A stretch of DNA of 32,973 nt from Bacteroidota bacterium. Its GTDB lineage: Bacteria > Bacteroidota > Bacteroidia > Flavobacteriales_F > PHOS-HE28. Within the stretch, counting starts at the first letter, position 1. The number at the start of each line of letters is the position of its first letter. The notes below the pieces were generated by a model that was not told where the DNA came from, made no database searches, and saw only the letters and a list, made by a program, of their open reading frames with translations. Shown here piece after piece: positions 337-29,727 of this stretch. A program made the translations under genes and the position numbers. Where the stretch lies: NCBI GenBank assembly GCA_023428865.1, contig JAEYWT010000147.1:1-32973 (forward strand), written 5' to 3'.

Positions 337-411
337 TGGTGACCCCACCAGGAGTCGAACCTGGATCAAGAGTTTAGGAAACTCCTATTCTATCCATTGA
401 ACTATGGAGTC
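337..411 (-). tRNA. tRNA-Arg (anticodon CCT), CCA encoded
   Basis: Hand-folded 75-nt cloverleaf. Acceptor GACTCCA/TGGGGTC, D arm GTTC-AATGGATA-GAAT, anticodon arm GGAGT-TTCCTAA-ACTCT (anticodon CCT), T arm CCAGG-TTCGACT-CCTGG, discriminator A, then CCA. Confidence 0.9.
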
Positions 412-16107: not shown

Positions 16108-16719
16108 ATGAACAAGATCAAGGGCTTACTCGTTCTAGTAGGCGTAGGACTGCTGGTGTTCTTCATCACGCGTTCGGTGTATGAGCCTAAGGGTAAGACC
16201 GAAGAGGTCACTTCCACGGTGCTCTTGGAGCGCATCAAGCCGGTGTTGAAATTGGTAACGGTGGAAGGTGAATTCAACGAAGTGTACACGTATCGCGATG
16301 CACAGGCCACCTTCGATTGGCTCAAGAGCTTCTCTCCATTTCAGAAGAAAGCGATGCTTCGCGTGAAGGCGCGGGTAAGCGTTGGATACGATCTGCACGG
16401 CATGGGGCTGGATGTGGATGAAGCCACGAAGACCATCACCTTCAACGGCATGAGCGCCCCACAAGTGCTGTCCATGGAACACGATATCGACTACTATGAC
16501 ATGGAGTCGGGCACTTTCAACCCCTTCACGGCACAAGACCACACCCGCATGGAGGCCCAGGCCAAGAACATGATCCGATCGAAGATCCCCGAAAGTGGCC
16601 TATTCCGGGCTGCGGCGGATCGCAAACAGGAAATGATCATCGTGGTACGGGCATTGGTGGAACATGCCGGCTGGACCTTCGTGGACGCCAGTGGTCACGG
16701 CCGCCCGATCGACCATTGA
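16108..16719 (+). CDS. DUF4230 domain-containing protein
   Basis: N-terminal anchor GLLVLVGVGLLVFFI, then VLKLVTVEGEFNEVYTYRD...KKAMLRVKARVSVGYDL, typical of DUF4230. Confidence 0.55.
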   Translation: MNKIKGLLVLVGVGLLVFFITRSVYEPKGKTEEVTSTVLLERIKPVLKLVTVEGEFNEVYTYRDAQATFDWLKSFSPFQKKAMLRVKARVSVGYDLHGMGLDVDEATKTITFNGMSAPQVLSMEHDIDYYDMESGTFNPFTAQDHTRMEAQAKNMIRSKIPESGLFRAAADRKQEMIIVVRALVEHAGWTFVDASGHGRPIDH

Positions 16720-16747
16720 CCCGGTATCTTCGCACTCCGATCCACGC

Positions 16748-18736
16748 ATGTCCGGCACCACCCTCATCTCCCCCTGGCAATACTGCCCCAGCCTTACGCA
16801 CTACGAACGTTGGAAGACACGCGCCGTGCGCATCGGCGACATCGGCATCGGTGGCGACAACCCGATCCGGGTGCAGAGCATGACCACCACGGACACCATG
16901 GACACGGAAGCCACCGTGGCCCAAAGCATCCGGATGATCGAAGCGGGTTGTGAACTGGTGCGCATAACCGCGCCGAGCAAGAGCGATGCCGAGAACCTCG
17001 CCGAGATCAAGAAGCGGATACGCGCAGCGGGTTTCACTGCTCCCTTGGTGGCCGATATCCACTTCACCCCGAACGCTGCTGAAGTAGCAGCACGCATCGT
17101 GGAAAAGGTGCGTGTGAACCCCGGCAATTATGCCGACAAGAAGAAATTCGATGTGCGCGAGTACACCGATGGCGAATACGAAGCGGAGTTGGAGCGCATC
17201 CGCAACCGCTTCACCCCCTTGGTGCGCATCTGCAAGGAGCACGGCACGGCCATGCGCATCGGTACCAACCATGGCAGCCTGAGCGATCGTATCCTGAACC
17301 GCTATGGCGACACACCACAAGGCATGGTGGAGAGCGCCTTCGAGTTCCTCCGCATCTGCCGCGACGAGAACTACCACGAGATCGTGCTGAGCATGAAGGC
17401 CAGCAACGTACAAGTGATGGTGCAGGCCTATCGTCTGCTCGTACACCGCATGATAGCCGAGGGCTGGGACTATCCGCTGCACTTGGGTGTGACCGAGGCC
17501 GGCGATGGAGAGGATGGTCGTGTGAAAAGTGCGGCAGGTATCGGTGCCTTATTGGAAGACGGCATCGGCGACACGGTGCGCGTAAGCCTTACCGAAGACC
17601 CCGAGTTCGAGATCCCGGTGGCGCGTGCGTTGGTGGATCGCTACAATACAAGGAAAGGTCACGCACCGATCCCAGCGATGATCGACGCCCCTCTCCCCGG
17701 GATAGGGGCCGGGGGTGAGGGGTATTCCCCATTCACTCATCAACGTCGCCGCACTACCGAAGTCCTCAACATGGGCGCGCGCCATGTTCCGGTAGTCGTT
17801 GCCGACTTGAGCAGCAAGGAGAAGATCACCCCGGCCGCCTTATTCGCTTGGGGCTATCGCTACAGTGTTCCGTTGGACAAGTGGAACATCACCGACCAAG
17901 CGTGCGACTACGTCTTCCTCGGAAAGAACACGATCAACTTCGAGATACCGGGGACGCTGGGCATCATCCAAGAGCACGCCACCTGGCTCACGAACAAGAG
18001 CAAGGAGCGGCACTACCCCTTCCTCAGCAAGCAACTTTATCTCGGAGGCGCAGAACGCCATCCGCAGTTCAACCTGGTCTATGCAAGCTTGCCACAGCTG
18101 GACAGTCGCTTCATCACCGAGCTTAAGGCCGATCCCACCGCCGTGCTGCTCATCGACACGTACAATACGCATGGCATGGCCGAGCAGCGCCGCCTATTCT
18201 TCGAATTGATCACACAGGAATGTCCGGTCCCGGTGATCATCGGCCGAGCCTATGGCGACATCGCGAACGATGCGCTGGTCTTGCACAGCAGCACGGACAT
18301 CGGCCCCTTGTTCATCGATGGCTTCGGTGACGGCATCTTCATTGCCGATGAGGATGGTGGCCGCGAAGACCTGGTCTGCCGCACGGCCTTCGGCATCCTG
18401 CAAGCCACGCGCACGCGCACCAGCAAGACCGAATACATCAGCTGCCCCAGCTGCGGTCGCACGCTGTTCGATCTACAGGAGACCACAGCACGGATCCGCG
18501 CGCGAACCAGCCACCTCAAAGGCATCAAGATCGGCATCATGGGTTGCATCGTGACCGGGCCAGGCGAAATGGCCGATGCCGACTACGGCTACGTGGGCAC
18601 CGGCCCCGGCGTGATCACCCTGTACAAGGAAAAGGAAGTGGTGAAGCGCAATGTACCCAGTGAAAAAGCCGTGGATGAATTGATCGAACTGATCAGGAGC
18701 CATGGGGATTGGGTGGAGTTGGTGGACCAACATTGA
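16748..18736 (+). CDS. ispG: 4-hydroxy-3-methylbut-2-en-1-yl diphosphate synthase, long three-domain (A-A*-B) form
   Basis: IGIGGDNPIRVQSMTTTDT, RITAPS, VADIHF, NPGN, RIGTNHGSL, LGVTEAG, and cluster ligands ISCPSCGRT...GCIVTGPGE. A ~270-aa insert lies between the TIM barrel and the Fe-S domain. ATG at 16748. Confidence 0.92.
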   Translation: MSGTTLISPWQYCPSLTHYERWKTRAVRIGDIGIGGDNPIRVQSMTTTDTMDTEATVAQSIRMIEAGCELVRITAPSKSDAENLAEIKKRIRAAGFTAPLVADIHFTPNAAEVAARIVEKVRVNPGNYADKKKFDVREYTDGEYEAELERIRNRFTPLVRICKEHGTAMRIGTNHGSLSDRILNRYGDTPQGMVESAFEFLRICRDENYHEIVLSMKASNVQVMVQAYRLLVHRMIAEGWDYPLHLGVTEAGDGEDGRVKSAAGIGALLEDGIGDTVRVSLTEDPEFEIPVARALVDRYNTRKGHAPIPAMIDAPLPGIGAGGEGYSPFTHQRRRTTEVLNMGARHVPVVVADLSSKEKITPAALFAWGYRYSVPLDKWNITDQACDYVFLGKNTINFEIPGTLGIIQEHATWLTNKSKERHYPFLSKQLYLGGAERHPQFNLVYASLPQLDSRFITELKADPTAVLLIDTYNTHGMAEQRRLFFELITQECPVPVIIGRAYGDIANDALVLHSSTDIGPLFIDGFGDGIFIADEDGGREDLVCRTAFGILQATRTRTSKTEYISCPSCGRTLFDLQETTARIRARTSHLKGIKIGIMGCIVTGPGEMADADYGYVGTGPGVITLYKEKEVVKRNVPSEKAVDELIELIRSHGDWVELVDQH

Positions 18737-18760: not shown

Positions 18761-19786
18761 ATGAAGCAAGTGACCTGCTATTCGATCCTACTTGCCATTC
18801 TGATCCTTCTCTCTACATCCATACGGGCCCAAGATGACCAGCTGGTCAATGGAAAAGGAACAAAGCTGGGCAGTAGGTCGGCGTTTCTTTCCAAATGTCA
18901 CGATACCTGGAACAAGACCCCTGAGTTCTCCTTCATCGATCGCGAGCGCTTCTGTGAATGCGCCATCCCGATCTTCTTGTCCACTGAGGCCATCGCTTCT
19001 ACTACGAACCCGAAGATCCTTGAGCACGTAGACCTTGCCATCCTTATTGGAGGACGAGAGACGGCTTTCGAGGAGATCCTTGCGTGTTCTGGAATGGAGA
19101 TGGGCATGGTACGGCTATCAACCATTGGGCCGGATGGTGTGGCTCATATGCGGTCAGAGTGCTCGGCTCAGTTGGCAAAAGAAGCCACCATCCAGAATGC
19201 AGGCATTAGCGCACAAGTCCTATGTGATTGCCTCATTCATGAGGTCCTCTCGCGAGACCTGACCATCGGAGACATCTATGCCGCAATGGATCCGAACTCC
19301 CCGCTGTTCAATGAGGTTTTCCTGCCGTGTGCCGAAAACTCCACGAAAAAGGACTTTGACAGTATAAGTTCATCCGAAGACATTGCAGGACCGGTAGGTA
19401 CCACAACTGTTCCGGTGATCCAATACAGCAATGTCCACAAGGTCAAAGTCCGCCTTGGTGACACTGAACAATATTTCATCATTGACTCTGGCGCCGATGC
19501 CTGCATCGTATCGAAGAAATTCGCCGTTCAACTAGAGCAGGCGGGCCTGATCGATAGAACCACGACATTACCCGATCGTGACTACATGCTCGCCAATGGC
19601 ACATTCGTCACCTGTCAACGATTCCTAGTGAACGGCTTCCAGATCGGCCCACTCAGGATCGACCGGGTCTTGGTCGCCTGCATGGACCGGGACATCCAGT
19701 ACCTCCTGGGAAAATCACTTCTTCAGAAGTTCAAGACCTGGCGAATAGATGAGTCCGCGAAGACCATCTCCTTCGAGCGCTACTGA
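18761..19786 (+). CDS. Secreted retropepsin-like (clan AA) aspartic protease with a Cys-containing N-terminal domain of unknown function
   Basis: Signal peptide MKQVTCYSILLAILILLSTSIRAQD. Active-site context YFIIDSGADACIVS (D-S-G-A), and a C-terminal LLGKSLLQKF..WRIDESAKTISF. Confidence 0.65.
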   Translation: MKQVTCYSILLAILILLSTSIRAQDDQLVNGKGTKLGSRSAFLSKCHDTWNKTPEFSFIDRERFCECAIPIFLSTEAIASTTNPKILEHVDLAILIGGRETAFEEILACSGMEMGMVRLSTIGPDGVAHMRSECSAQLAKEATIQNAGISAQVLCDCLIHEVLSRDLTIGDIYAAMDPNSPLFNEVFLPCAENSTKKDFDSISSSEDIAGPVGTTTVPVIQYSNVHKVKVRLGDTEQYFIIDSGADACIVSKKFAVQLEQAGLIDRTTTLPDRDYMLANGTFVTCQRFLVNGFQIGPLRIDRVLVACMDRDIQYLLGKSLLQKFKTWRIDESAKTISFERY

Positions 19787-19814: not shown

Positions 19815-20840
19815 CTACCCTTTCGGCAACCGCATACGCTTATCCCGGAAAACGCCGATGTACTGCAGGCTTACTTCCATGCCACCGCGATACATGGTCT
19901 GTGTGCGAAGCTTGCTGATGTTGATGTCGTAGCTCAGGGCCGCTACGAAATTGCGCTCCCACTCGAACTGGATCGTGGGAAGGATGGCATCACCTACGCG
20001 GTAGAAAGCGCCTAAGTAGAAGGCCGAAGAGTTCTTGTCGGTGGTGTAGCGGCTGTCCACGCCGATCCTACGGTGCAGCAGACCACCTATGTTGATCTCG
20101 CGACTGATGCCTTGTTGGGCTACGAAGAACTTCGGCAACCACACCCAGCGCTTCCCGTCGATGCGTAATTCGCCATGGACCACGTAGCGGCGTAGCAGCT
20201 CATCCTCTGCACTTCCGAAGAGGGAAACACGCGGTTGGTTCAGGTGGAAAGCAGAAGTACCACCCTTCCAGCGGATACCGCCTTTCAACTCTCCTTTCGC
20301 GAGAAGACCTGCGCCGAGATCAACGAAGCGCGAGGAGCTGTTCGCCATGGCTTCGTTGTTGGGTAACGTGGGGTCATAGCCCGCGCCATTGTATTGGCTG
20401 TCCCAGCGCAGGCCTTGGAATTGGGCACTGCGTTGGCCATAACCACCTTGCAGACCGAACGCAAGCAAGCTTGAAGCGCCACTGCGGATGGCGTAAGACA
20501 CGCTCAGGTTGGCTTGTGTATCACCGAATCGCGCAGCCCCGGCACGATCGCTGAAGGCATTCACCCCAAGACCCAAATAGCGCCCTTTGCCGAGCTTCCC
20601 TTCGAGCACAGGTGCATCGTAACTGAAGGCATCAGTGCGAAAAGGACTGCCGATACTGCGCCATTGTTCGCGATGGATGATCGCGAAACGTTGGTCGCCT
20701 TCCATGTCACCAGCGTTCGCCGGGTTGATGACCAAGGGTGCATTGAAGAACTGTCCGAAGTGGACATCTTGAGCCCATACGGACTGCTGTGCGACAAGGC
20801 CGCAGAGCACCAAGCGCATCATGTGCATCAGCGTCATCAT
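19815..20840 (-). CDS. PorP/SprF family type IX secretion system membrane protein
   Basis: Signal peptide, then DVHFGQFFNAPLVINPANAG, the hallmark PorP_SprF N-terminal motif. The body is beta-barrel-like. The start ATG overlaps the stop of the upstream cargo gene (ATGA). Confidence 0.85.
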   Translation of the reverse strand: MMTLMHMMRLVLCGLVAQQSVWAQDVHFGQFFNAPLVINPANAGDMEGDQRFAIIHREQWRSIGSPFRTDAFSYDAPVLEGKLGKGRYLGLGVNAFSDRAGAARFGDTQANLSVSYAIRSGASSLLAFGLQGGYGQRSAQFQGLRWDSQYNGAGYDPTLPNNEAMANSSSRFVDLGAGLLAKGELKGGIRWKGGTSAFHLNQPRVSLFGSAEDELLRRYVVHGELRIDGKRWVWLPKFFVAQQGISREINIGGLLHRRIGVDSRYTTDKNSSAFYLGAFYRVGDAILPTIQFEWERNFVAALSYDINISKLRTQTMYRGGMEVSLQYIGVFRDKRMRLPKG

Positions 20841-23800
20841 CGTACCAAGGTGATGTTACCTGTCCGTTCGATCCGCGTTCCATCCTCCGCTCGGGCGAAT
20901 AGCGTGTAGACGTATACGCCGCTTGCACTGCGATCGCCATTCGCCGTTCCATCCCATCCCTGATCCACACTTCCGCTGGCGAAAAGGCGACTGCCCCAAC
21001 GGTCAAAGACAGCGAATTCCATTTCCACCACGGTCGGCCCTCGAACGTATAGCACGTCGTTGTTCCCATCGCCGTTCGGGCTGAACACATCGGGAATGAA
21101 GACCACTTCACTATCGCGGATGCAGATATCGATGGCCATGCTATCTGCACAGAAACCTTCGTTCCAAACTACCAGCTGCGTGCGATAAGATCCGGCCACG
21201 CCATGGTCATAGGTCGGGTTCACACCCGGTTCGTAGGGGATGGTATCCGCATTGATCACCCAGTGACCACCCACCGCATTGTTGCTCAGATCGATGAAGG
21301 TTACCTCTCGCTGCTCAAATGGGATGCACGTTTCATTGGGGTTGCTGCTGTACAGCGCGGTGATGACCGGCCAGCTAGGTATGCGGATCAAGCTATCGGA
21401 CTGGCAACCGGTCTCTTGGTTCGTCACAGTGGCCATGGCGAGCCCCCCTGCTGGCAGTACGATGCTATCCGCCACGATCTCTTCGGAACCCGTGCTCCAG
21501 TGGAACACGTAGGTACCCGGTGCATCCACGCCACCGCTCACATACCCGGGTTCTCCATAGCATTGCATGTCCGATAAGGTGAACTGCGGCTCGAATGGCG
21601 GATGCACCACGATATCGATGGTCTCTGTGACCGGATCACTACAGCCATCGTTGATGAAGACCGTATAGGTGGTCGAGGTGGTAGGACTCACGCTTACGGT
21701 CGCCGCCGGGAATAGTCCATTATCCCATTGGAAAGCGAGCAGACCTTGAGGATCGCCGCCTTGTGTCGTGGCAACGATGCCTGTGCCACCTCCAGTGCAG
21801 ATCGGGTTATTGGAAGCGACCAGTTCCACACTGAGCGCAGGGTGATCCGAGAAGCGGACGGTATCACTCGACTGGCAATTGCCGGAACCGTACGTATAGA
21901 CCAAGGTGTAGTCGCCATCGGGCAAGGTGCTGGGGTTGAAACTTGTGGTACCCAAGCCTTGGAACACGCCACCCTCTGGCGCAAGTGAAATGATGATCTC
22001 CACCTCGTTGGAACAGTAACGTTCTTGCACGCCGCTGATGGTGGCTTGTAGGAAGGGTATCACCGTGACTTCCACACTATCGCGGCAGCCGCCCGGAGTA
22101 GTGTACTGGATCATATGTACCCCGCTGCCAGCGACCGCAGGATCGAACAGCCCAGCATCGTCCACCCCTGCCCCAGTGAAGTTGGCCCCAGGAGGCACGT
22201 TCGCCAGGTAGAACGGACCAATGGAAGCGCAGACGGTAAGTGGATCGTTGGGGAGTTGTGCAGGATGAATGATCGCGATCAACGCATCACTGCATGTATT
22301 CGCTTCATACGTTAGCAGGTGTACACCAATACCAGCCTGTTGCGGCCGGAAGAACCAGTCGCCGTCGCCATTCTGCTGGATGGAAGCTCCTGACCAATCG
22401 CCATCCCATGGCCTTCTTCCCGTGGTTTCCTCATTCAATTGAAAGGCCGCATCGCCAGCGCAGAAGAAGAGGGTATCTACGTCCAAGCGCGTAAAGCCTA
22501 CCCAAATGCCGATGGTATCCACACAACCGTTGGGCGCGAAATAGAGGATCTCATCCCAACCATTGCCAGCTTGCACAGGATCGTATGTACCCGCAATCGC
22601 ATCCACAATGCCCTCGCCGGTCCATGTTCCACCTGCGGGAATAGCAGCGGGTTGCAAGGTGAAAGGAGCGGGCTGATCGGGACATGCGCTGCGGCTTCCT
22701 CCAATGTCCACCGGTTTCACATGGATGGTGAATTGTTCGTCGCAACCGTGCAGCGCATAGGTCAAGGTGTGCGTTCCACCGCCGGCTTCGTCCGGATCGA
22801 AGGTGCCGCGCAGCGAGTCCACGATACCGGCACCATACCAGCGACCGCCCCACGGCAGTGCGGGTATATCGAACGGCACGTTGCTCTCGCAGACGGTATC
22901 GAGCTGGGTTTCTCCGGTTATCACATCCACATTGATGGTCTTCGTATCGGAGCATACGCCCGCCGAATAGGTGACCACGTAAGAACCGACCGTGCTGGGG
23001 TCGAACCAACCATCTGGCGTGATGAAGGGCCCATTCCAAACACCCCCGGCCGGTGTGTGGTCAACGATCCGGAAAGGTGCGGTCCCGGGACAGGCAGCCT
23101 CATCAAGTCCAGCATCCATACTATCCACGAACAAGGTGATCTGCGCTTCGCAGCCGCCTGGAATACCATAGCTGAGCACATGCGCACCAGGGCCTGCGGT
23201 ATCCGGATCGAAGGTTCCGGCAAGGCTATCGAGGATGCCAGCACCGCTCCACCATCCCCCGGGTGGTTGGCTTTGTATATCGAACGCCTCGGCCGACTGG
23301 CATACCGAAGCAGGCACTCCAATGATCTGCGGATCCAGCACCACGATGGTGACGGAATGGCTCGCCTGCGCCCCTGTTCCATTCTCTGTAGCCACCACGG
23401 AATACGTCGTTGTCGTGGTAGGACATACGCAGATCGGTCCACGTACCGCTGGAAGACCGTTATCCCACACATACGTGTAGGCCAGACACCCGTTCACATC
23501 GGCGACCAGGTCGATACAGGATCCAGAGCAAATGGTATCAGCGGTAGCGATGATCTCCACATCGATCGGACACGTGCTGATCTGGGTGCTCGCGTGCAAG
23601 GTGAAATACCAGAGCGAATCACATCGATCGCGCAGACCGATGCGGAAGGAAAGGTCATACGGACAATTGCGCTCGAAGGGTGGCGCCAGCATGAGCCGTA
23701 GGTTCTGCGTATAACCCGATGCACAGCCCATGGGCTGCACGCCGACAACATCCGGTGCGCCTTCACCGATCAGCTGCACCACATCAACCACCATGGAGTC

Positions 23801-24319
23801 GCATGCCACGGGGTAACTGAAGTGTAGATCCAACCGGGAACTGTTGCACGCAGGTGCTGTGGGAATGGTCATTACCGGAGGCACGGGTGGCGCAGCATAG
23901 CTGGTCCATTGCGCCTCGAAACCACAATACGCCACGTTCTGGTCGCTCACGAAATGCACGGTGAGCACGCCGCTGTTCGCCACGATGGGCGGTGGTGCCG
24001 TTGTGCCCGAATACGCCGGACCGATCTGTGGTGAGTTGATAGAAGGACCGTCGTGGAAACTGATGAAGTCGTAACCCTGTTCGAGACAGAACAGCGGGCT
24101 GAACACCAAGGTGATCTGGCTGCCCGCATCGATGGTGAAGACGAGGTCCTCGTTATTGCCGTAGAGGTTGCCACCCGGCCCGGCTTCGCTATCCAGTAGA
24201 ATGCCCTTGCACTCGGTGACCGTGGTGTCGGCCATGTTGAATTCTGGCAACACCTGTCCGTGCGCTACACCGAGCGACACACCTGCCACGAGGGCCAGCG
24301 ATGTGCGTAAGCTGGACAT
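20837..24319 (-). CDS. Large T9SS cargo or adhesin: signal peptide, CUB-like domain, Cys-rich region, Ig-like modules, seven ~70-aa repeats, PKD-like domain, type-B (gliding motility-associated) C-terminal domain
   Basis: C-terminus VFIPDVFSPNGDGNNDVLYV...FDRWGSRLF...GWDGTANG...ASGVYVYTL...GNITLVR matches the CHU_C / type-B CTD pattern. See the sub-features for the other domains. Confidence 0.85.
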   Translation of the reverse strand: MSSLRTSLALVAGVSLGVAHGQVLPEFNMADTTVTECKGILLDSEAGPGGNLYGNNEDLVFTIDAGSQITLVFSPLFCLEQGYDFISFHDGPSINSPQIGPAYSGTTAPPPIVANSGVLTVHFVSDQNVAYCGFEAQWTSYAAPPVPPVMTIPTAPACNSSRLDLHFSYPVACDSMVVDVVQLIGEGAPDVVGVQPMGCASGYTQNLRLMLAPPFERNCPYDLSFRIGLRDRCDSLWYFTLHASTQISTCPIDVEIIATADTICSGSCIDLVADVNGCLAYTYVWDNGLPAVRGPICVCPTTTTTYSVVATENGTGAQASHSVTIVVLDPQIIGVPASVCQSAEAFDIQSQPPGGWWSGAGILDSLAGTFDPDTAGPGAHVLSYGIPGGCEAQITLFVDSMDAGLDEAACPGTAPFRIVDHTPAGGVWNGPFITPDGWFDPSTVGSYVVTYSAGVCSDTKTINVDVITGETQLDTVCESNVPFDIPALPWGGRWYGAGIVDSLRGTFDPDEAGGGTHTLTYALHGCDEQFTIHVKPVDIGGSRSACPDQPAPFTLQPAAIPAGGTWTGEGIVDAIAGTYDPVQAGNGWDEILYFAPNGCVDTIGIWVGFTRLDVDTLFFCAGDAAFQLNEETTGRRPWDGDWSGASIQQNGDGDWFFRPQQAGIGVHLLTYEANTCSDALIAIIHPAQLPNDPLTVCASIGPFYLANVPPGANFTGAGVDDAGLFDPAVAGSGVHMIQYTTPGGCRDSVEVTVIPFLQATISGVQERYCSNEVEIIISLAPEGGVFQGLGTTSFNPSTLPDGDYTLVYTYGSGNCQSSDTVRFSDHPALSVELVASNNPICTGGGTGIVATTQGGDPQGLLAFQWDNGLFPAATVSVSPTTSTTYTVFINDGCSDPVTETIDIVVHPPFEPQFTLSDMQCYGEPGYVSGGVDAPGTYVFHWSTGSEEIVADSIVLPAGGLAMATVTNQETGCQSDSLIRIPSWPVITALYSSNPNETCIPFEQREVTFIDLSNNAVGGHWVINADTIPYEPGVNPTYDHGVAGSYRTQLVVWNEGFCADSMAIDICIRDSEVVFIPDVFSPNGDGNNDVLYVRGPTVVEMEFAVFDRWGSRLFASGSVDQGWDGTANGDRSASGVYVYTLFARAEDGTRIERTGNITLVR
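21845..23317 (-). repeat. Seven divergent tandem protein repeats (~65-75 aa each, residues ~335-825)
   Basis: Recurring pattern C..(..)PF.(5-9)P.GG.W.G.GI.D...G.FDP..AG.G.H.L.Y....GC......V. Examples are PPGGWWSGAGILDSLAGTFDPDTAGPGAHVLSY, PWGGRWYGAGIVDSLRGTFDPDEAGGGTHTLTY and PAGGTWTGEGIVDAIAGTYDPVQAGNGW. The repeats are protein-level only, with no near-identical DNA copies. Confidence 0.7.
23903..24211 (-). other. CUB-like domain (residues ~37-139 of the 1160-aa protein)
   Basis: CKGILLDSEAGPGGNLYGNNEDLVFTIDAGSQITLVFSPLFCLEQGYDFISFHDGPSINSPQIGPAYSG...SGVLTVHFVSDQNVAYCGFEAQW aligns by eye to the CUB pattern C..G.......Y.....C.W.I.....I.L.F..F.LE...YD.v.i.DG......G...G...P......S....l...F.SD.s....GF.A.y. 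Confidence 0.55.
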
Positions 24320-24322
24320 GGT

Positions 24323-24772
24323 TCACGGGTTCTGCGCAGCGTTGATGGTAATGGCCGATGTAGTGATGGTATTGCTGCGGTTGCCCGCGCGATCCTCCAC
24401 GTAGAAGCTATAGGTCATCACTTCCTGGTCACTATTGCCGAGCAGGAAAAGCGGCGAAAGTTCCACCACCAGTTCGCCTTGTATGGCGATCTCGTGATCG
24501 GGTGGTGCCAGTGGTATGATATGGTAACCATCGGCTACGGAAAGTCGACTGTCCTTCACCCACAATGAGTGGTCATCCGGATCGGAGCGCCCTAGATCCC
24601 CATCGCCATCCTTGTAGCTGAACCGCAGCATCACCGGTGTTTGGAATTCGGTGATCTGCGCTGGTCCCACGCTGGTCAGTTCGATGGAAGGTTCCTTCGG
24701 CATCACCTCCACCTTCTCCTTCTTACAGGCCGATAGTGCGATCACGAAAAGGAATATGACCACCTTGTTCAT
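24323..24772 (-). CDS. Small lipoprotein, predicted beta-sandwich, unknown function
   Basis: Lipobox MNKVVIFLFVIALSAC-KKE, and an acidic DGDGDLGRSDPDD loop. ATGA overlap with the upstream gene, and its stop lies 3 nt before the cargo gene start. Confidence 0.6.
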   Translation of the reverse strand: MNKVVIFLFVIALSACKKEKVEVMPKEPSIELTSVGPAQITEFQTPVMLRFSYKDGDGDLGRSDPDDHSLWVKDSRLSVADGYHIIPLAPPDHEIAIQGELVVELSPLFLLGNSDQEVMTYSFYVEDRAGNRSNTITTSAITINAAQNP

Positions 24773-25710
24773 GCGGCAACGCGTAAAGTGAAGTAGTTGG
24801 TCATAGGAGTTCCGGTATTGTCATCCGGGATCTCCGTTGGCACGTCGTGATCACCGTCCTGCACATAGACCCTAACGAAGAGCACAGTGCCCGGTGCATG
24901 GTCGCCGAGCTGAAGGGAGACCTTGTGGGTGAAGGTGATGCTGCTGTTGCCGAAGTCGGGTCCCGAAACGGTCGAACCGGTCTGCAGATCCAAAGCAGGA
25001 ATGGCTTCGAAGGCCGTGCCCGCAAGAGCCACCTTGACTTTGTTGTGGGTAAGCGTGCTGGGTGGTGTGGTGTCGTCGGAAAAGGCGAACCAGAGATCCA
25101 CATTGCCCGCTGGCACAGTGATCGGTTGAATGCCTTCTCCCGTTCCACGAGCAAAGGCACCGGTGGTCGCATCAGCTGGAAAAGCCATCAGTCCGGTTAC
25201 CTGTGGTTGCAAATTTCCAGCGCCTGGAAGCTGACCGAACATGTCGCGCGCACCGGCAGCGATCCAATTATCGATGGCTGCTTTGTACGCTGCGCTGTTG
25301 GCTGGCCAGTCGGTGTTCTCGGTGAAGCCCAGCGGCATGATACCCGACGTGTTCGGAATGAAGATGTTCAGCCGCGCGTGAAGCAGGGAGGCGCTCACAT
25401 CGCCCGGCACCACGCGGTGCGTGTAACTGTTCTGCGGATCATTGGCGATCACCGGGTGCAGCACCAGCGAGTTGTACGAACTGCCTATGCTGCGGAACTC
25501 CGGCTCGAAAGAACCGTCGTGGCAACCGCTGATAGCGCAGTTCGGGCGCAGGATCCGCTGATGGATCCAAGCGAAGTTGCTCTGCGGAATGGCGTCCACC
25601 GTGGGGTTCGGATCGCGGCGCTCCAACGCATCGTACGGATCGGGCGTCTCCTTCTTGCACGCTGCCAGCACGAACACGATGAACGATATGCAGAGCAGGA
25701 ACTTCTTCAT
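24769..25710 (-). CDS. Lipoprotein with an N-terminal PSCyt-like (Planctomycete cytochrome-c-like) motif C-x4-CH and a C-terminal beta-rich domain
   Basis: Lipobox MKKFLLCISFIVFVLAAC-KKE. FAWIHQRILRPNCAISGCHDG...HRVVPGDVSASLLHARL...MP resembles the PSCyt pattern f..V.PIl...C..CH...(vvPG.p..S.L..rl). Confidence 0.55.
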   Translation of the reverse strand: MKKFLLCISFIVFVLAACKKETPDPYDALERRDPNPTVDAIPQSNFAWIHQRILRPNCAISGCHDGSFEPEFRSIGSSYNSLVLHPVIANDPQNSYTHRVVPGDVSASLLHARLNIFIPNTSGIMPLGFTENTDWPANSAAYKAAIDNWIAAGARDMFGQLPGAGNLQPQVTGLMAFPADATTGAFARGTGEGIQPITVPAGNVDLWFAFSDDTTPPSTLTHNKVKVALAGTAFEAIPALDLQTGSTVSGPDFGNSSITFTHKVSLQLGDHAPGTVLFVRVYVQDGDHDVPTEIPDDNTGTPMTNYFTLRVAA

Positions 25711-25712
25711 GA

Positions 25713-27044
25713 TCAGATGCGATCGAAGAGTGACTGTGTCCCCGCGTGCAACATGCCTGCGCCCATCACCTCGTTCTTCACGCCGAGCACCTCAGCGATC
25801 GTGGGCACTACATCGGTAACGATACCAACTGGGTTGCCCTCACCACCGATCGAGAGGCTCGTCGGTACGCTCGGTCCGGCCATCATGCCGAACACGCGCA
25901 TGGCATTGGCATCGCTGTGGTCGAAACTGTACCAGTCGTTCTGATCGCGGATGGCGTTGGGTTCGGCGTTGCGACCGCATTCGGGTACCGCGATGATCAC
26001 CGTGTTGTTGGCCATGCCGGGCACCTGGTTCTGTATGTAGTCCCACAGATGGCCTACGGCATGGTCTGCACGGTGCATGGCCGCGAGGTATCCGGTGAAA
26101 CTACTGTGGCAGCCATCTACGCCATCCATATTCACCACGGTAAGGGCCGGCTTGAACCACTTGATCACTTCGCAGGCATAACCCACGGTACGTAGATCAC
26201 CGGCATCGTGTACTGGAGGGTGTGCGATGGTGCCGTTCTGTGTCTTGGTGAACATTTCGGCCATGAAGGCTTTGATGTCCTGCTTCTCTTCAGGTGTGTT
26301 ACCGATGCTCGTGGGCACTGTGCCGTAACGCTCGAAGCTGTTGTCCAGAAAGGCCTTCATCTCGTAGATCGGCTCCAACTGGTCCTGCGGATGATACACC
26401 TTGGCGTTGGCCAGATATTGGTCACCCGCCGGGCCAAAGGTGATGTTCGGTGCGAAGAAGTTGGCTCCGTAACGTGCCCCATAGTTGGGGTTGATGCTGT
26501 AGTTGAGCAAGGGCACACTGTTGCCGATGCCATTGCCCACGAACCAGGTCTTCGTAGCGGGCAATCCGGCATGGCGCCGGAGATACTCGAAGATGGTCGG
26601 GTTGAGCGGCTTCTGTTGCAGGCCTTGTGTGGAAGCGGTGCCACCTTGTAGCAAGGAGTTCAAGCCACCATAGTGACCGGCGTTCACCGCCCGCATTTCG
26701 CGGAATAGGGTGCCCTGCTGTTGTAGGGTCTGCCCGAGGATCGGTTGTATCGGGTTGATCCCGCCGAGGCCGGTGCCGTAGACTATCTTCTGCGGAGGCG
26801 GTGTGCCGTTCAACATGTTGTAGAGTATGTTGCCCTCCACGTTGTCCGTCTGTGCATCGGCTAGATACCGTTGCAGTACACTCTCCTGTTGACGAACACC
26901 ACCGGCGAACATCACCAGCACCACATGTTCGGCCAGCTGCATACCCGATGCAGCGAACAAACGACCGCTGGGCAGGATGTATGGCGCAGCGAACAACCCC
27001 GCGGCGGCGGCACTCGTACGCGTGATGAACTTCCTGCGGTCCAT
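25713..27044 (-). CDS. Tat-signal DUF1501-like protein (alkaline-phosphatase/sulfatase-fold superfamily), divergent
   Basis: Twin-arginine leader MDRRKFITRTSAAAAGLFAAP. VVLVMFAGGVRQQES resembles l.l.GG.S..Dtf. VVNMDGVDGCHSS resembles the GGWDTH position. IIAVPECGRNAEPN...FDHSD resembles GEFGRTP..N..GRDHW. Confidence 0.6.
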   Translation of the reverse strand: MDRRKFITRTSAAAAGLFAAPYILPSGRLFAASGMQLAEHVVLVMFAGGVRQQESVLQRYLADAQTDNVEGNILYNMLNGTPPPQKIVYGTGLGGINPIQPILGQTLQQQGTLFREMRAVNAGHYGGLNSLLQGGTASTQGLQQKPLNPTIFEYLRRHAGLPATKTWFVGNGIGNSVPLLNYSINPNYGARYGANFFAPNITFGPAGDQYLANAKVYHPQDQLEPIYEMKAFLDNSFERYGTVPTSIGNTPEEKQDIKAFMAEMFTKTQNGTIAHPPVHDAGDLRTVGYACEVIKWFKPALTVVNMDGVDGCHSSFTGYLAAMHRADHAVGHLWDYIQNQVPGMANNTVIIAVPECGRNAEPNAIRDQNDWYSFDHSDANAMRVFGMMAGPSVPTSLSIGGEGNPVGIVTDVVPTIAEVLGVKNEVMGAGMLHAGTQSLFDRI

Positions 27045-27056
27045 GGTGGTGTTGGA

Positions 27057-27560
27057 TCAGTAGAACAGGTATTCCTCGCTCAGTGCGAAGGAGAAGTAGA
27101 TCAGTTCGGGTGTCACGTACGGATCCGCAGTGATCGTGTTGCGGAACCAGGTCTTCTCCGCTTCCGTGGGGTTGCGGACCAAGAAGCGGTTATACGTAGC
27201 GGTGATGAAACCGTCCACATCGGCATGCATCTCCTCCTGGGTCGGGATGATCACCCCGGGCTTGTTCATGAAGTTGCTGATGATCACTTCCCGTGCTAGC
27301 TGCTTGTCGCCAATGCTCTGGATGCATTGGTCGATCTTGTACAGATCACCGGGTGAGAGGGCCGTTTGGAACAGGTTGGCATGCAGGATCGCCGCATACT
27401 CCTGGTTGGTCTTCTCACGCTCCTTGTTGCCGCTGTATTGCGCCAGGTCCACCGGCTCCAGCTCGTACACGAACACCTCCTTCTTGCAACTGGCCAGAAG
27501 CAGGGTCCAGGCCAGGAAGAACCCGGCCCTACCGATCATGCTATGGAAGCTGCGGACCAT
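27057..27560 (-). CDS. Lipoprotein with helical DUF1549/DUF4214-like motif units
   Basis: Lipobox ...FFLAWTLLLASC-KKE. Unit FITATYNRFLVRNPTEAEKTWFRNTITADPYVTPELIYFSFALSEEY. Confidence 0.55.
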   Translation of the reverse strand: MVRSFHSMIGRAGFFLAWTLLLASCKKEVFVYELEPVDLAQYSGNKEREKTNQEYAAILHANLFQTALSPGDLYKIDQCIQSIGDKQLAREVIISNFMNKPGVIIPTQEEMHADVDGFITATYNRFLVRNPTEAEKTWFRNTITADPYVTPELIYFSFALSEEYLFY

Positions 27561-27569
27561 GCGCGTGGA

Positions 27570-27701
27570 TCAACGGCGTGCGTGGACCGACTTCTGCGCT
27601 ACAGAGCGTTCGCCTTTGTCGCTGCTGTGGTTGATCACGATCACGGCCAGCACGAGGATCATCACGGCGGCTTGTATCAGGGTGCGGTACTTCGTTTCCA
27701 T
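27570..27701 (-). CDS. Unannotated 43-aa single-pass membrane peptide (below the ORF-track length cut-off)
   Basis: Hand translation: ATG (27699-27701) METKYRTLIQAAVMILVLAVIVINHSSDKGERSVAQKSVHARR TGA (27570-27572). It has a hydrophobic core LIQAAVMILVLAVIVI and a basic tail. The stop lies 9 nt before the next ATG, and a CA-rich spacer precedes the start. Confidence 0.45.
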   Translation of the reverse strand: METKYRTLIQAAVMILVLAVIVINHSSDKGERSVAQKSVHARR

Positions 27702-27719
27702 GGTGTTGAGGGTTCAGGT

Positions 27720-27746
27720 GGTTGTTGTGGTTGTTGTGGTTGTTCT
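27720..27746 (-). repeat. 3 x 9-nt tandem repeat in the intercistronic spacer (mRNA sense AGAACAACC-ACAACAACC-ACAACAACC)
   Basis: The plus strand reads ggttgttgt ggttgttgt ggttgttct at 27720-27746. It lies between the stop of the 307-aa lipoprotein gene (27749-27751) and the small-ORF ATG (27701). Confidence 0.85.
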
Positions 27747-27748
27747 TG

Positions 27749-28672
27749 TCAGCTATTCACCAGGCCGGCATATTCATCGCCGACGAGGATGGCACGTTGC
27801 AAGCGTCGCAGGTCGTGATCGGCCATGAACGCGGTGGTGAGTTGGTAGGCTTCGTATGCACCCGGCTCGCGACCGAGGTACGAGCGGAAGAACAGACGCA
27901 CCAGCCCTTCATGGCCTTCGGCGCTGTTCACGAGGACCTGCAGGTAACCGCCTTTGTTCTGTGCGCTCTGGCCGAAGAGGATGGCACCGCTGTTGTGTTC
28001 CACCATGATATAGGCGGCGTCGAACTCGGCGTTGGTGGGGTAGCGGAAGAGCAGGTTGTCGAAACTCGCGTTGATGAAGTTGAACGCGTTCATATTGATC
28101 TCGTCATACACGTCGTTGAACATCATCCGGCGCGCCATCTCCACGGCATTGATCTGCCCTTCGCGATATGCCACCCGTGCTCCTTTCAGTTGGAGCAGAC
28201 GTTGCAACGCGCTGTTGCTTTCACTGGCGGCAATGGCGTTCCCGCTCAACGAATCGTTCAGTGCGGCTTGTGCGGCATTACCGATGAAACCATCGATCAC
28301 TTCATCGCTCACACCTTCTATGAAGCGGGCTTTGAACTGTTCGTAGGTGCGCTGGGCGTAGGCATGCTTGTACGATGAATCGCCCTGCACGAAGGCCGAG
28401 CTCGTCATCAGCTTGTTCACCAACGCCGTGCGGGCTTCCAACGAAAGACCTCCTGCGTTCAATGCGTTCACCTCGGCGCTCATCTCCGCATCCACCGGTT
28501 CGCGGCCGAGCAGATCGATGAACAAGCGGTTCACGTAATTGCGCACCACCACCGAAGGCACCGCATCGTAGTCCGGCGCCAGTTTGTTCGGTCGCACCAC
28601 CACTTCTTCCTTCTTACAGGACACAAGTAGCAGCACGGCAGCGAACAACGATATGGAAGGGAGCGTGTTCAA
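27749..28672 (-). CDS. Lipoprotein with repeated helical DUF1549/DUF4214-like units; first gene of the cluster
   Basis: Lipobox MNTLPSISLFAAVLLLVSC-KKEE. Units VVRNYVNRLFIDLLGREPVDAEMSAEVNAL...LVNKLMTSSAF and LVRLFFRSYLGREPGAYEAYQLTTAFMADHDLRRLQRAILVGDEYAG. The only in-frame start is a TTG at 28672 and the n-region carries no charge, so the start is uncertain. Confidence 0.55.
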   Translation of the reverse strand: MNTLPSISLFAAVLLLVSCKKEEVVVRPNKLAPDYDAVPSVVVRNYVNRLFIDLLGREPVDAEMSAEVNALNAGGLSLEARTALVNKLMTSSAFVQGDSSYKHAYAQRTYEQFKARFIEGVSDEVIDGFIGNAAQAALNDSLSGNAIAASESNSALQRLLQLKGARVAYREGQINAVEMARRMMFNDVYDEINMNAFNFINASFDNLLFRYPTNAEFDAAYIMVEHNSGAILFGQSAQNKGGYLQVLVNSAEGHEGLVRLFFRSYLGREPGAYEAYQLTTAFMADHDLRRLQRAILVGDEYAGLVNS

Positions 28673-28823
28673 GCTATGGTGACCTGTCTACGCCCCGGGT
28701 TGCGGTGGGTATACAAGTCCTCGATACAGAACATGCCCTGATCGACGAACCTCCTTTCCAAAACGACGGACCCGAACAGTTCCGCTCCTGCCGACCTATG
28801 TGCTCAATGCACACAATAGCCGG

Positions 28824-29111
28824 TCACGTACCCAAATACTCCTTGATCGCCTTCACGTACACCTCGAACGCAGCAATGCCTTTGGGGGTGATGCCACAAA
28901 CCGTGTTGGGGTAATTGTCCTTGAAGGTCTTCCGGACATCGATATAACCGACTTCCTTCAACTTGGTGATCTGCACGCTGAGGTTGCCGCGCGTAGCACC
29001 GGTCTTCTCCAAAAGAAAGTTGAAGTCGCCCTCTTCGAAGGCCACCAACAAGCTCATGATGGCAAGCCGGAGTTGGTTGTGCAACAGCGGATCAAGCGGA
29101 GCGAAGGCCAT
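28824..29111 (-). CDS. Winged-helix transcriptional regulator (HTH_34-like small regulator)
   Basis: MAFAPLDPLLHNQLRLAIMSLLVAFEEGDFNFLLEKTGATRGNLSVQITKLKEVGYIDVRKTF is the typical small wHTH regulator found downstream of a membrane protein in Bacteroidota. ATG at 29111. Confidence 0.75.
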   Translation of the reverse strand: MAFAPLDPLLHNQLRLAIMSLLVAFEEGDFNFLLEKTGATRGNLSVQITKLKEVGYIDVRKTFKDNYPNTVCGITPKGIAAFEVYVKAIKEYLGT

Positions 29112-29679
29112 CTTCCTGGCGTTTGAGCAAGAACCCGGGAACGATGTAGCCCAATAGCATGGCAGCACAATAAAGAGCCGTGAGCAAGCCTGCTTCTTGT
29201 GTGAAATGCATGGCGATGCCGGCGACCCAGAACAGAAGTCCGCCGAGGATCAAAGGGCGAAAACGCATGATCTGTCCGGTAAGGAAGGTGGGTAAGCCGG
29301 TCAACACGGTTATCGTAGGACCGGGATCAACACCATTGCGCAAGGTGCCGAACAAGAGCAACATCATGGTGATGATGAAACTACCCCAGACCCAACCCAC
29401 GATCCGGTCCATGGGATTGGTCGCTGCCTCCTTCTGGGCCGACCGGGCACCGTGGATCGAGCTGATGAGCCCACCGAGAACACCCGCTATTCCCCATGGT
29501 AGACCATGTCGCATGGCCGGGTCGAGATCCGATAACAGGTAAGTGGCCAGCATGGCACCGGTCAATAGCACCCCCCACAAAAGGAAGTAGAAACTGATGC
29601 GGTGAAAGCTCTTCTTCGCCTGGCTGATCATGCTTTCGATCAGCTTCAGGCTTTGCTCGGGGTGCATTTCCGTGTTCAT
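29092..29679 (-). CDS. Multi-pass membrane protein of unknown function, co-transcribed with the wHTH regulator
   Basis: MNTEMHPEQSLKLIESMISQAKKSF, then about 5 TM helices. It overlaps the regulator start by 20 nt. The longer start at 29706 would sit inside the predicted -7 box. Confidence 0.6.
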   Translation of the reverse strand: MNTEMHPEQSLKLIESMISQAKKSFHRISFYFLLWGVLLTGAMLATYLLSDLDPAMRHGLPWGIAGVLGGLISSIHGARSAQKEAATNPMDRIVGWVWGSFIITMMLLLFGTLRNGVDPGPTITVLTGLPTFLTGQIMRFRPLILGGLLFWVAGIAMHFTQEAGLLTALYCAAMLLGYIVPGFLLKRQEDGLRSA

Positions 29680-29699
29680 GGTGAATGAGTTGGATGGCG

Positions 29700-29727
29700 C
29701 AAACATAAACTTGTTTATTGTATAAAC
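29700..29727 (-). promoter_or_regulatory. -7 box TATGTTTG plus overlapping ATAAAC/GTTTAT inverted repeats (candidate promoter and operator)
   Basis: The minus strand reads TATGTTTG at 29700-29707, ending 20 nt upstream of the ATG at 29679. ATAAAC (29705-29710) tt GTTTAT (29713-29718) tgt ATAAAC (29722-29727) forms two overlapping perfect 6-bp palindromes in an AT-rich divergent intergenic region. Confidence 0.4.

Follow-up and report, generated by a model that had tools for sequence, protein, structure and literature searches.

DUF1501 proteins encoded with PSCyt/PSD or DUF1800 partners have been flagged since 2004–2012 as abundant, conserved and of opaque function (PMC3542564, PMC5615132, PMC5122149). 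With PSCyt1, PSCyt2 and PSD1 they make up conserved modules of unknown function in Planctomycetota and Verrucomicrobiota (Kamneva et al. 2012, PMC3542564; He et al. 2017, PMC5615132), and DUF1800-DUF1501 pairs, whose function is likewise unknown, have been described beside bacterial chitin synthases (PMC5122149). The reference module, found in Planctomycetes-Verrucomicrobia-Chlamydiae (PVC) bacteria and in Proteobacteria, consists of a helical DUF1800 or DUF1549/PSD1 partner, a DUF1501 protein whose export uses twin-arginine translocation (Tat) and a cytochrome c. In type IX secretion systems (T9SS), a porP/sprF-like gene directly 3' of the gene for a type-B substrate is the norm, and the PorP/SprF-like carrier is required for secretion and anchoring of that substrate (PMC12618676, PMC9143113). 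Here we describe a cluster of eight minus-strand genes (g1 to g8) on a 32,973-nucleotide contig of a Bacteroidota bacterium (JAEYWT010000147.1, assembly GCA_023428865.1; the whole stretch is referred to as the window). The cluster appears to be a variant of the already known, uncharacterised class of DUF1501-type systems, with a T9SS pair joined to a split lipoprotein core.

Taken as a whole, the explanation that we favour, and hold with modest rather than strong confidence, is that these genes form one conserved, probably co-transcribed envelope cluster in two parts, a core module and a T9SS cargo-carrier pair. The core (g1, g3, g4, g5 and g6, with g2 in one subclade) appears from its sequences to be a split-gene lipoprotein variant of the DUF1501-type module, to which g7 and g8 seem to have been added downstream in this Flavobacteriales clade.

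Conservation of the cluster was assessed with a profile of g4 orthologues, which found relatives in 497 species-representative genomes. We fetched 80 loci of these, among which 53 have full flanks, that is, at least 1.6 kb upstream and at least 6.6 kb downstream of g4. In 52 of the 53, g1, g3, g5, g6 and g7 all stand alongside g4, and the PorP gene g8 is present in 41; in every full-flank locus the cluster genes present are colinear and on a single strand. The 4-nt overlaps between g5 and g6 and between g7 and g8 recur in most loci. Flanking genes differ between related loci, and the neighbours of the cluster in Sanyastnella coralliicola are wholly different from those in the window. Identity to the window proteins is 62–93% for g4 (80 loci), 48–89% for g3, the second most conserved gene, 35–85% for g1, g5, g6 and g7, and 29–80% for g8. 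The sole full-flank locus in which g1, g3, g5, g6 and g7 went undetected by tblastn (L064) carries a g4 with 62% identity, flanked by ORFs (open reading frames) of 310 and 781 aa of unknown relation to the cluster. The arrangement is far beyond chance, and the cluster is conserved across many Flavobacteriales.

One locus per genome was found among the 80 species-representative genomes, except in one metagenome-assembled genome (MAG), DAOORM01 (AMR_MDS_2545), with two copies (L003 and L030, g4 identity 92% and 74%) that are either paralogous clusters or the product of a mixed bin. Six loci (L043, L048, L054, L063, L067 and L070) hold a Flavobacteriales-type cluster although their organism labels make this implausible (Chitinophaga pinensis, Chryseobacterium gleum, Comamonadaceae, Gammaproteobacteria), and these are probably mislabelled MAGs.

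The first-pass annotation of the window had proposed a tightly packed eight-gene operon that joins two modules, and had suggested a search for synteny in related genomes. Coordinates and sequence bear out all eight ORFs and every junction: spacers of 47 nt (g1/g2), 9 nt (g2/g3), 12 nt (g3/g4), 2 nt (g4/g5) and 3 nt (g6/g7), and 4-nt ATGA overlaps at g5/g6 and g7/g8. An identical gene set was called on contigs of at least three independent sequencing runs. A scan of the window gave no terminator-like site in the intergenic gaps on the minus strand; the three minus-strand sites found all lie within coding sequence, and the total number of sites is below the shuffle expectation. The cluster is probably co-transcribed. 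The operon-like packing thus holds, with tight junctions and an order kept across the full-flank loci, as does the co-occurrence of the core with the cargo and porP genes at the frequencies given above.

The product of g4 had been labelled DUF1501-like and taken for a phosphatase/sulfatase-fold enzyme. It gave no Pfam match at E≤0.1, PF07394 included, and no NCBIfam family beyond a sub-threshold Tat signal (TIGR01409, 14.7 bits vs a cut-off of 16.7); R3, R4 and F6 are invariant among orthologues. The 120 close homologues listed are all unannotated Flavobacteriales proteins, none with a recorded Pfam domain, and the single protein sequence found nothing meaningful in the PDB. The g4-orthologue profile, in turn, reaches two more distant proteins, P0155 (1e-39) and P0172 (3.5e-34), which score above the gathering threshold of PF07394 (28.6 and 28.0 bits vs 27). 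Through these intermediates g4 is transitively homologous to bona fide DUF1501 proteins, and since they pass PF07394 while g4 does not, we place it in a sister lineage of DUF1501. The earlier label therefore holds for the kinship, but not for membership of the Pfam family.

The fold is that of the alkaline-phosphatase superfamily. With the AlphaFold2 (AF2) model of g4 (predicted template modelling score, pTM, 0.80), the top 50 Foldseek matches in the PDB all belong to this superfamily, most with probability 1.00 and with E-values down to 6.5e-9, and the best of them are sulfatases or alkaline phosphatases. By exhaustive profile search the g4 family is of modest size (737 clusters), and its distant relatives match Phosphodiest, Sulfatase, Metalloenzyme and DUF1501. 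The family profile matches nucleotide pyrophosphatases/phosphodiesterases (NPP) and sulfatases at 1e-14 to 1e-11, and the match to the Xanthomonas NPP (1e-14) allows the catalytic positions to be mapped. The Zn1 ligands D210 and H214 of NPP align with D310 and H313 of g4 and are retained. The nucleophile Thr90 aligns with the invariant H124, the β1 metal ligand Asp54 with a Gly within an invariant AGGVR, and the Zn2 ligands D257-H258 of the DHGM motif with E355-C356 in PECGR, a site that reads PE[H/F/C]GR in the wider family. Three Cys are invariant. In this alignment g4 has no Ser, Thr or formylglycine nucleophile and no complete set of bimetal ligands, and it retains one metal site made up of D310, H313 and probably H376.

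Based on its fold, on the profile matches to NPP and sulfatases and on its Tat signal, g4 might be read as an ordinary hydrolase (a phosphatase, phosphodiesterase or sulfatase) that is exported by Tat and scavenges nutrients, with the lipoproteins and the adhesin helping to bind organic phosphate or sulfate polymers. We consider this quite improbable: the position of NPP Thr90 is held by an invariant His, the β1 Asp has become Gly and DHGM has become ECGR, and cytochrome-like proteins, for which a hydrolase has no need, are consistent partners of the family. Because of these substitutions, together with the three invariant Cys and export by Tat, g4 is unlikely to work by the classical mechanism of a phosphatase or sulfatase; the fold assigned at first sight stands, the hydrolase type is not supported. 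Just after the hydrophobic region of the Tat signal, g4 carries the segment APYILPSGRLFA (residues 20–31, window 26952–26987), which is invariant among orthologues and nearly invariant in the distant family. Such conservation is unusual beside a signal peptide, and the segment may serve for docking or recognition at the N-terminus of the mature protein.

The lipoprotein g5, annotated at first as PSCyt-like, has no Pfam match at E≤0.1 and no NCBIfam match. Its AF2 model (predicted local distance difference test score, pLDDT, 87.8) comprises a helical N-terminal domain and a C-terminal Ig-like sandwich; the fold search against the PDB gave no significant match, only generic β-sandwich similarities, and at the sequence level neither the single protein (nothing meaningful) nor a profile search (nothing) added to this. 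The motifs C-x4-CH and G-x-MP occur in 71 of 71 g5 orthologues and CxxCH in none of the 71; three g5 homologues from core-only loci likewise have C-x4-CH followed by an MP motif. When the g5 profile was aligned by hhalign with the genuine PSCyt1 domain of L088, a locus of the wider g4 family, 83 columns were collinear (P=0.0014), with Cys...CH, vvPG..S.L, MP and WI..GA in register and a two-residue insertion in the haem motif. A homology search with the g5 profile listed orthologues without annotation only and did not reach PSCyt1 proteins, and the profile showed no similarity to the multihaem-like neighbour of a distant g4 relative. The N-terminal domain of g5 is a candidate PSCyt1-like mono-haem c domain with predicted haem attachment. 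The PSCyt-like label is thus backed by a weak collinear alignment, but not by a Pfam match or a canonical CxxCH.

Upstream of g4 lie g1 and g3. The window g1 stays below threshold with every model: DUF4214 (4.8e-4, 20.6 bits vs 23.2), PBS_linker (1.1e-4) and PSCyt2 (PF07583; E=0.089, 13.2 bits vs 29.8). Among 33 g1 orthologues, sub-threshold matches were found to DUF4214 in 24, PBS_linker in 19 (best 3.1e-8), PSCyt2/DUF1549 in 15 (best 4.5e-5) and PSD1 in two. The initial DUF1549-like assignment of g1 therefore keeps sub-threshold support, but the Pfam models named are not passed. Against the PDB, the g1 profile matched phycobilisome linker chains (ApcH, 1.4e-6), and the protein is built as a lipoprotein with three DUF4214/PBS-linker/DUF1549-like helical modules. 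DUF4214 (PF13946) also matches 23 of 33 g3 orthologues (best 3e-5, sub-threshold), and hhalign aligned g3 with the middle module of g1 (probability 90%, E=1.6e-6). By these comparisons g1 and g3 are paralogous DUF4214/PBS-linker-like helical lipoproteins. The TTG start of g1 (window 28637–28672 region) yields a proper lipoprotein signal, MNTLPSISLFAAVLLLVS-C; automatic calls at three loci (L090–L092) place a GTG start 12 codons downstream, giving 295 aa, which would cut the signal peptide.

The remaining core lipoprotein, g6, has no Pfam or NCBIfam match and is marked by a conserved acidic loop, Y-x-D-x-x-GDLG-x-x-DPD. The lipoboxes of g1, g3, g5 and g6 are all followed by C-K-K-E/D, which in the window reads C-K-K-E-E in g1 and C-K-K-E-x in the other three. 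In Bacteroidota, the signal for surface export of lipoproteins is K-(D/E)2 or Q-A-(D/E)2 after the lipidated Cys (PMC5080379), and K-(D/E)2 occurs in 25 of 64 g1, 6 of 57 g3, 30 of 57 g5 and 32 of 54 g6 orthologues.

The downstream part of the cluster is a T9SS cargo with its carrier, and here curated models uphold the CUB, type-B and PorP/SprF calls of the initial annotation. The g7 protein has a signal peptide, a CUB domain (residues 51–137; PF00431, 32.3 bits vs a cut-off of 21.4), about seven tandem, Cys-bracketed repeats of about 72 aa each (residues ~335–850) and a C-terminal domain of the CHU_C/type-B kind (CTD; 1074–1157). Over residues 1074–1160 the CTD passes both PF13585 (8.7e-15, 55.1 bits vs 27) and TIGR04131 (1.4e-12, 47.6 bits vs 35). 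In eight scanned orthologues, CHU_C was found in all and CUB in seven (20.7–38.2 bits), along with matches to PKD-like region/PKD and weak matches to the SprB repeat. Directly downstream of this type-B substrate gene, and overlapping it by 4 nt, g8 encodes a PorP/SprF protein (PF11751, 4.6e-41, 141.6 bits; TIGR03519, 2e-50, 171.9 bits vs 90.55).

Given the type-B CTD, the weak SprB-repeat matches and the PorP/SprF-family gene directly downstream, the cluster could be a gliding-motility adhesin operon like sprCDBF, in which g7 and g8 would be a mobile SprB/SprF-like pair and the lipoproteins accessory. Static PorE-PorP-substrate complexes have a PorE-like gene in the same operon, and the lack of a PorE-like neighbour is linked to mobile substrates (PMC12618676); beside g8 no PorE-like gene was found, the neighbour being a convergent aspartyl-protease-like gene in the window and unrelated genes in another locus (L001). 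This point is in line with a gliding function, but SprF bonds to GldK on the gliding track via a C-terminal Cys-X-Cys motif (PMC12635249), and that motif was found within the last 40 residues of none of 43 g8 sequences; the window g8 has no Cys after residue 30. Moreover, in other lineages the core occurs without the adhesin, and it is related to non-motility DUF1501 systems. We consequently give the gliding operon very little chance and reject the identification of g7 as a gliding adhesin, as the Cys-X-Cys tail is missing in g8. With neither that tail nor an adjacent PorE-like gene, g7/g8 resembles neither an SprB-type mobile adhesin nor a PorE-anchored complex.

The two parts of the cluster can be told apart in distant lineages, which carry a four- or five-gene core (g1-like, g3-like, g4, g5-like and usually g6-like) without cargo or PorP. 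Two such loci (L084 and L085) encode proteins of 305 (with a faint DUF4214 match), 167, 439, 320 and 151 aa, followed by a convergent gene; a third (L086) encodes 312 (faint DUF1800), 170, 438 and 299 aa, and the neighbourhood of another distant g4 relative (P0164) proteins of 187, 452, 326, 137 and 134 aa, all without T9SS genes. The neighbourhood of P0124, on a short contig, showed no partner genes. Because these lineages carry the core alone, the T9SS pair is a clade-specific addition. The two-module division drawn in the first annotation holds in this respect, and the clade as a whole has kept the joined form. Family members that form a bridge to DUF1501 have neighbours of the described kinds: one locus (L093) encodes, in order, a DUF1800-like protein, DUF1501, a cytochrome-c7-like protein with LVIVD and an EF-hand protein, another (L094) a PSD1-like protein and then DUF1501, and near two more (L087 and L088) lie genes for a multihaem-like protein and a PSCyt1-TPR protein. 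As far as sequence comparison goes, these neighbours match published DUF1501 modules and DUF1800-DUF1501 pairs.

It is conceivable, if unlikely, that the core and g7/g8 are unrelated neighbours kept together by vertical inheritance and a compact genome, not by a shared function. The core is found alone in distant lineages, PorP is gone from the locus in 11 of 52 genomes, and a type-B cargo with its PorP-like carrier is self-sufficient in Flavobacterium johnsoniae (PMC12618676); this alternative stays alive because the core is independent of g7/g8 in other lineages. Against it, g6 has g7 as its immediate downstream neighbour in 52 of 53 loci over g4 identities of 62–93% while both flanks are reshuffled, and the g6-g7 junctions are gaps of a few nt or 4-nt overlaps with no terminator-like site between the genes. 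The conserved tight g6-g7 linkage suggests co-expression in fixed proportion.

Under the two-part cluster, g4 would fold and load its metal or cofactor in the cytoplasm and then be exported by Tat, and the outer-membrane-anchored helical lipoproteins g1 and g3 would capture or dock it. Together with g5, probably its haem-c electron partner, g4 would act on a periplasmic or outer-membrane-proximal substrate, by a chemistry other than classical phospho- or sulfo-ester hydrolysis. The g7 protein would be exported by T9SS, held at the surface by g8 and uncoupled from the gliding track, serving as a binding or capture element, a statically displayed adhesin made at a fixed ratio to the core. The analysis shows the order of the genes and its conservation, the folds, the remote homologies and the substitutions in the motifs; that the proteins form a complex, that haem is bound, that the chemistry is redox and that core and adhesin are functionally coupled are steps that we infer.

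Several points weigh against the two-part reading. The core stands without g7/g8 in other lineages, and at 11 of the 52 loci no PorP gene lies beside g7, unrelated housekeeping genes following instead; CHU_C was still present in the seven g7 orthologues scanned from such loci, and these 11 loci are accounted for by the carrier that orphan type-B substrates share, whose gene lies elsewhere in the genome. That g7/g8 are coupled to the core, physically or functionally, is a prediction from the gene arrangement. The AF2 model of g4 is of moderate confidence (pLDDT 71.9), with TM-scores of about 0.4 to its PDB matches. For g5, the Pfam PSCyt1 model (PF07635) matches one of 32 orthologues, at 0.048, the hhalign probability is just 17% with a single-sequence template, and haem attachment through C-x4-CH is a prediction. 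The topology of the lipoproteins is ambiguous, as the export signal is carried by approximately 10–60% of orthologues, depending on the gene.

A bolder version of the two-part reading, which we regard as improbable, is a trans-envelope machine of a new type, in which a CUB/repeat adhesin, displayed by T9SS and held by a PorP-like barrel, would have a physical link to a redox enzyme that is tethered to the outer membrane and built on an alkaline-phosphatase scaffold, itself wired to an unusual C-x4-CH mono-haem lipoprotein. The enzyme would have His at the nucleophile position and Cys-containing metal ligands and would be exported by Tat with its cofactor. If this were true, the chemistry of the whole DUF1501/PSCyt class, long unknown, would come to light.

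Table 1. Genes and non-coding elements of the cluster, with window coordinates.
Feature	Coordinates	Strand	Description
g1	27749–28672	-	307 aa, TTG start; lipoprotein signal MNTLPSISLFAAVLLLVS-C, then KKEE
spacer g1/g2	27702–27748	-	47 nt, CA-rich, caagaacaaccacaacaaccacaacaaccacc...; found only where g2 is present
g2	27570–27701	-	43 aa, single-pass transmembrane (TM) peptide, subclade-specific
g3	27057–27560	-	167 aa, lipoprotein, single DUF4214-like helical module
g4	25713–27044	-	443 aa, Tat signal, alkaline-phosphatase-superfamily fold
g5	24769–25710	-	313 aa, lipoprotein, candidate haem domain (helical, C-x4-CH...G-x-MP) and Ig-like β-sandwich
g6	24323–24772	-	149 aa, lipoprotein, no known family
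g7	20837–24319	-	1160 aa, T9SS type-B cargo
g8	19815–20840	-	341 aa, PorP/SprF-family outer-membrane carrier
upstream non-coding region	28673–28823	-	151 nt, conserved block, candidate promoter/operator
multi-TM gene and HTH_34 winged helix-turn-helix (wHTH) regulator gene, overlapping	28824–29706	-	upstream of g1, close clade only

The small g2 (Table 1) is real but restricted to one subclade. Its signature, MEPKxRTLVQAAL followed by a hydrophobic segment, was found in the g1-g3 spacer of 12 related loci, and gene callers also report it in independent contigs; most of the other loci examined have no space for it, since g1 and g3 touch or overlap there.

A gap of 151 nt separates g1 from the upstream wHTH ORF, and an alignment of eight close loci revealed a conserved block there: three TCGTCG-like repeats followed by GGAACC...GCGTAGACAG. 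The closer clades share the block, in which GCGTA[C/G]ACAG comes after GGAACC, and the motif does not reach beyond them. Of 67 loci examined, 10 have the 9-mer CGTA[CG]AC[AC]G close to the start of g1, vs 44 occurrences in 2.6 Mb overall (about one per 60 kb). In this upstream region Rfam matched no riboswitch or other known RNA, and a sigma-70-type promoter scan of the window is uninformative for Bacteroidota. The first-pass annotation had seen no TAnnTTTG box in this gap and had let the transcription unit begin at 29679, with the wHTH gene. As a small correction, a one-mismatch match to TAnnTTTG, TCGTTTTG, is present 5' of g1. Because the conserved non-coding block lies just 5' of g1 in close relatives, the start of transcription is better sought in the gap than at 29679, and the block may be the cluster's promoter or operator.

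The wHTH product matches HTH_34 at 1.5e-25; gene callers report the wHTH/membrane pair as products of 195 and 95 aa with a 20-nt overlap, and the multi-TM protein as about 200 aa. The wHTH gene lies upstream of the cluster in 22 of the 53 full-flank loci, every one of which has a g4 at least 73% identical to that of the window; its distance from g1 is 159–1900 nt. From this count and variable distance we conclude that it is a clade-specific neighbour outside the conserved unit, which rules out a wHTH gene heading the operon as a general feature; the pair is a possible local regulator.

On the other side, convergent with g8, the window encodes a secreted protein of 341 aa whose domain is retropepsin-like (Asp_protease_2; 18761–19786, plus strand); in none of the 80 related loci was a homologue found at 10 kb or less from the cluster. 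Farther out lie a long, 690-aa IspG/GcpE (16664–18736, plus strand), whose Pfam match is split into two stretches, so that it carries a large insertion, and which is ordinary housekeeping context for the cluster, and a tRNA-Arg gene with anticodon CCT (337–411, minus strand).

The cluster offers practical advantages over the described modules. In Planctomycetes, dozens of DUF1501-module paralogues hamper genetics, whereas here the fetched loci suggest one copy per genome, the proteins are small and separate, and conservation is very strong, with g4 62–93% identical over family-level divergence. Its hosts include Flavobacteriales in culture, such as Sanyastnella coralliicola and Halocola ammonii, and the localisation of the attached T9SS cargo is traceable with established tools. 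Owing to the apparent single copy, split genes, conservation, cultured hosts and T9SS cargo, what DUF1501-type modules do should be more directly testable here. Further, the analysis defines unannotated families (g4, g5 and g6 without a Pfam match, g1 and g3 with sub-threshold matches only) and documents a lineage of the alkaline-phosphatase superfamily whose active site is non-canonical. To T9SS biology it adds a type-B cargo/carrier pair consistently co-encoded with non-T9SS envelope proteins.

Compared with the DUF1501/PSCyt modules of Planctomycetota and Verrucomicrobiota, the cluster is alike in that a Tat-exported protein of alkaline-phosphatase fold has as neighbours a helical partner of DUF1549/PSD1 type and a protein that bears a cytochrome-c-type motif, in a conserved gene order and with unknown function. 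The DUF1501-type context is also found in the invariant R3, R4 and F6 of g4 and in the position of g1 and g3 upstream of it in 52 of 53 loci. It differs in that the window proteins fail the DUF1501/PSCyt-type Pfam models; in that the PSCyt1-, PSCyt2- and PSD1-like parts, which form one large polypeptide there, are separate lipoproteins here; in the haem motif, CxxCH there and C-x4-CH here; and in the β1 strand, which carries an Asp motif there and GGVR in g4. PVC genomes hold many paralogues, whereas a single locus is the rule here (80 fetched genomes, one MAG with two), and a T9SS cargo and PorP are attached to the module of the present cluster.

The DUF1800-DUF1501 pairs (PF08811; Proteobacteria and others) resemble the cluster in having a helical partner immediately upstream of a Tat-exported DUF1501-type gene, and the g1 homologue of L086 and the partner in L093 show faint DUF1800 matches. 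Here, however, g1 and g3 are short lipoproteins (307 and 167 aa) that are DUF4214/PBS-linker-like, not large DUF1800 proteins, and the cluster adds genes for cytochrome-like and small lipoproteins. With NPP and sulfatases, g4 shares the fold and the Zn1-type ligands (D310/H313, corresponding to NPP D210/H214), while the Thr, Ser or formylglycine nucleophile is replaced by His, the β1 Asp is lost, D-H is changed to E-C and three Cys are invariant. Finally, g7/g8 is like the T9SS type-B pairs SprB/SprF and Fjoh_3952/Fjoh_3951 of F. johnsoniae and PG1035/PorP of Porphyromonas gingivalis (PMC9143113, PMC12618676) in that the PorP/SprF gene comes right after the cargo gene, and the PorP-less loci recall the orphan substrates without an adjacent carrier. 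It differs from those pairs in that g8 lacks the twin-cysteine tail of SprF and has no PorE-like gene next to it, and in that the pair lies downstream of five non-T9SS envelope genes.

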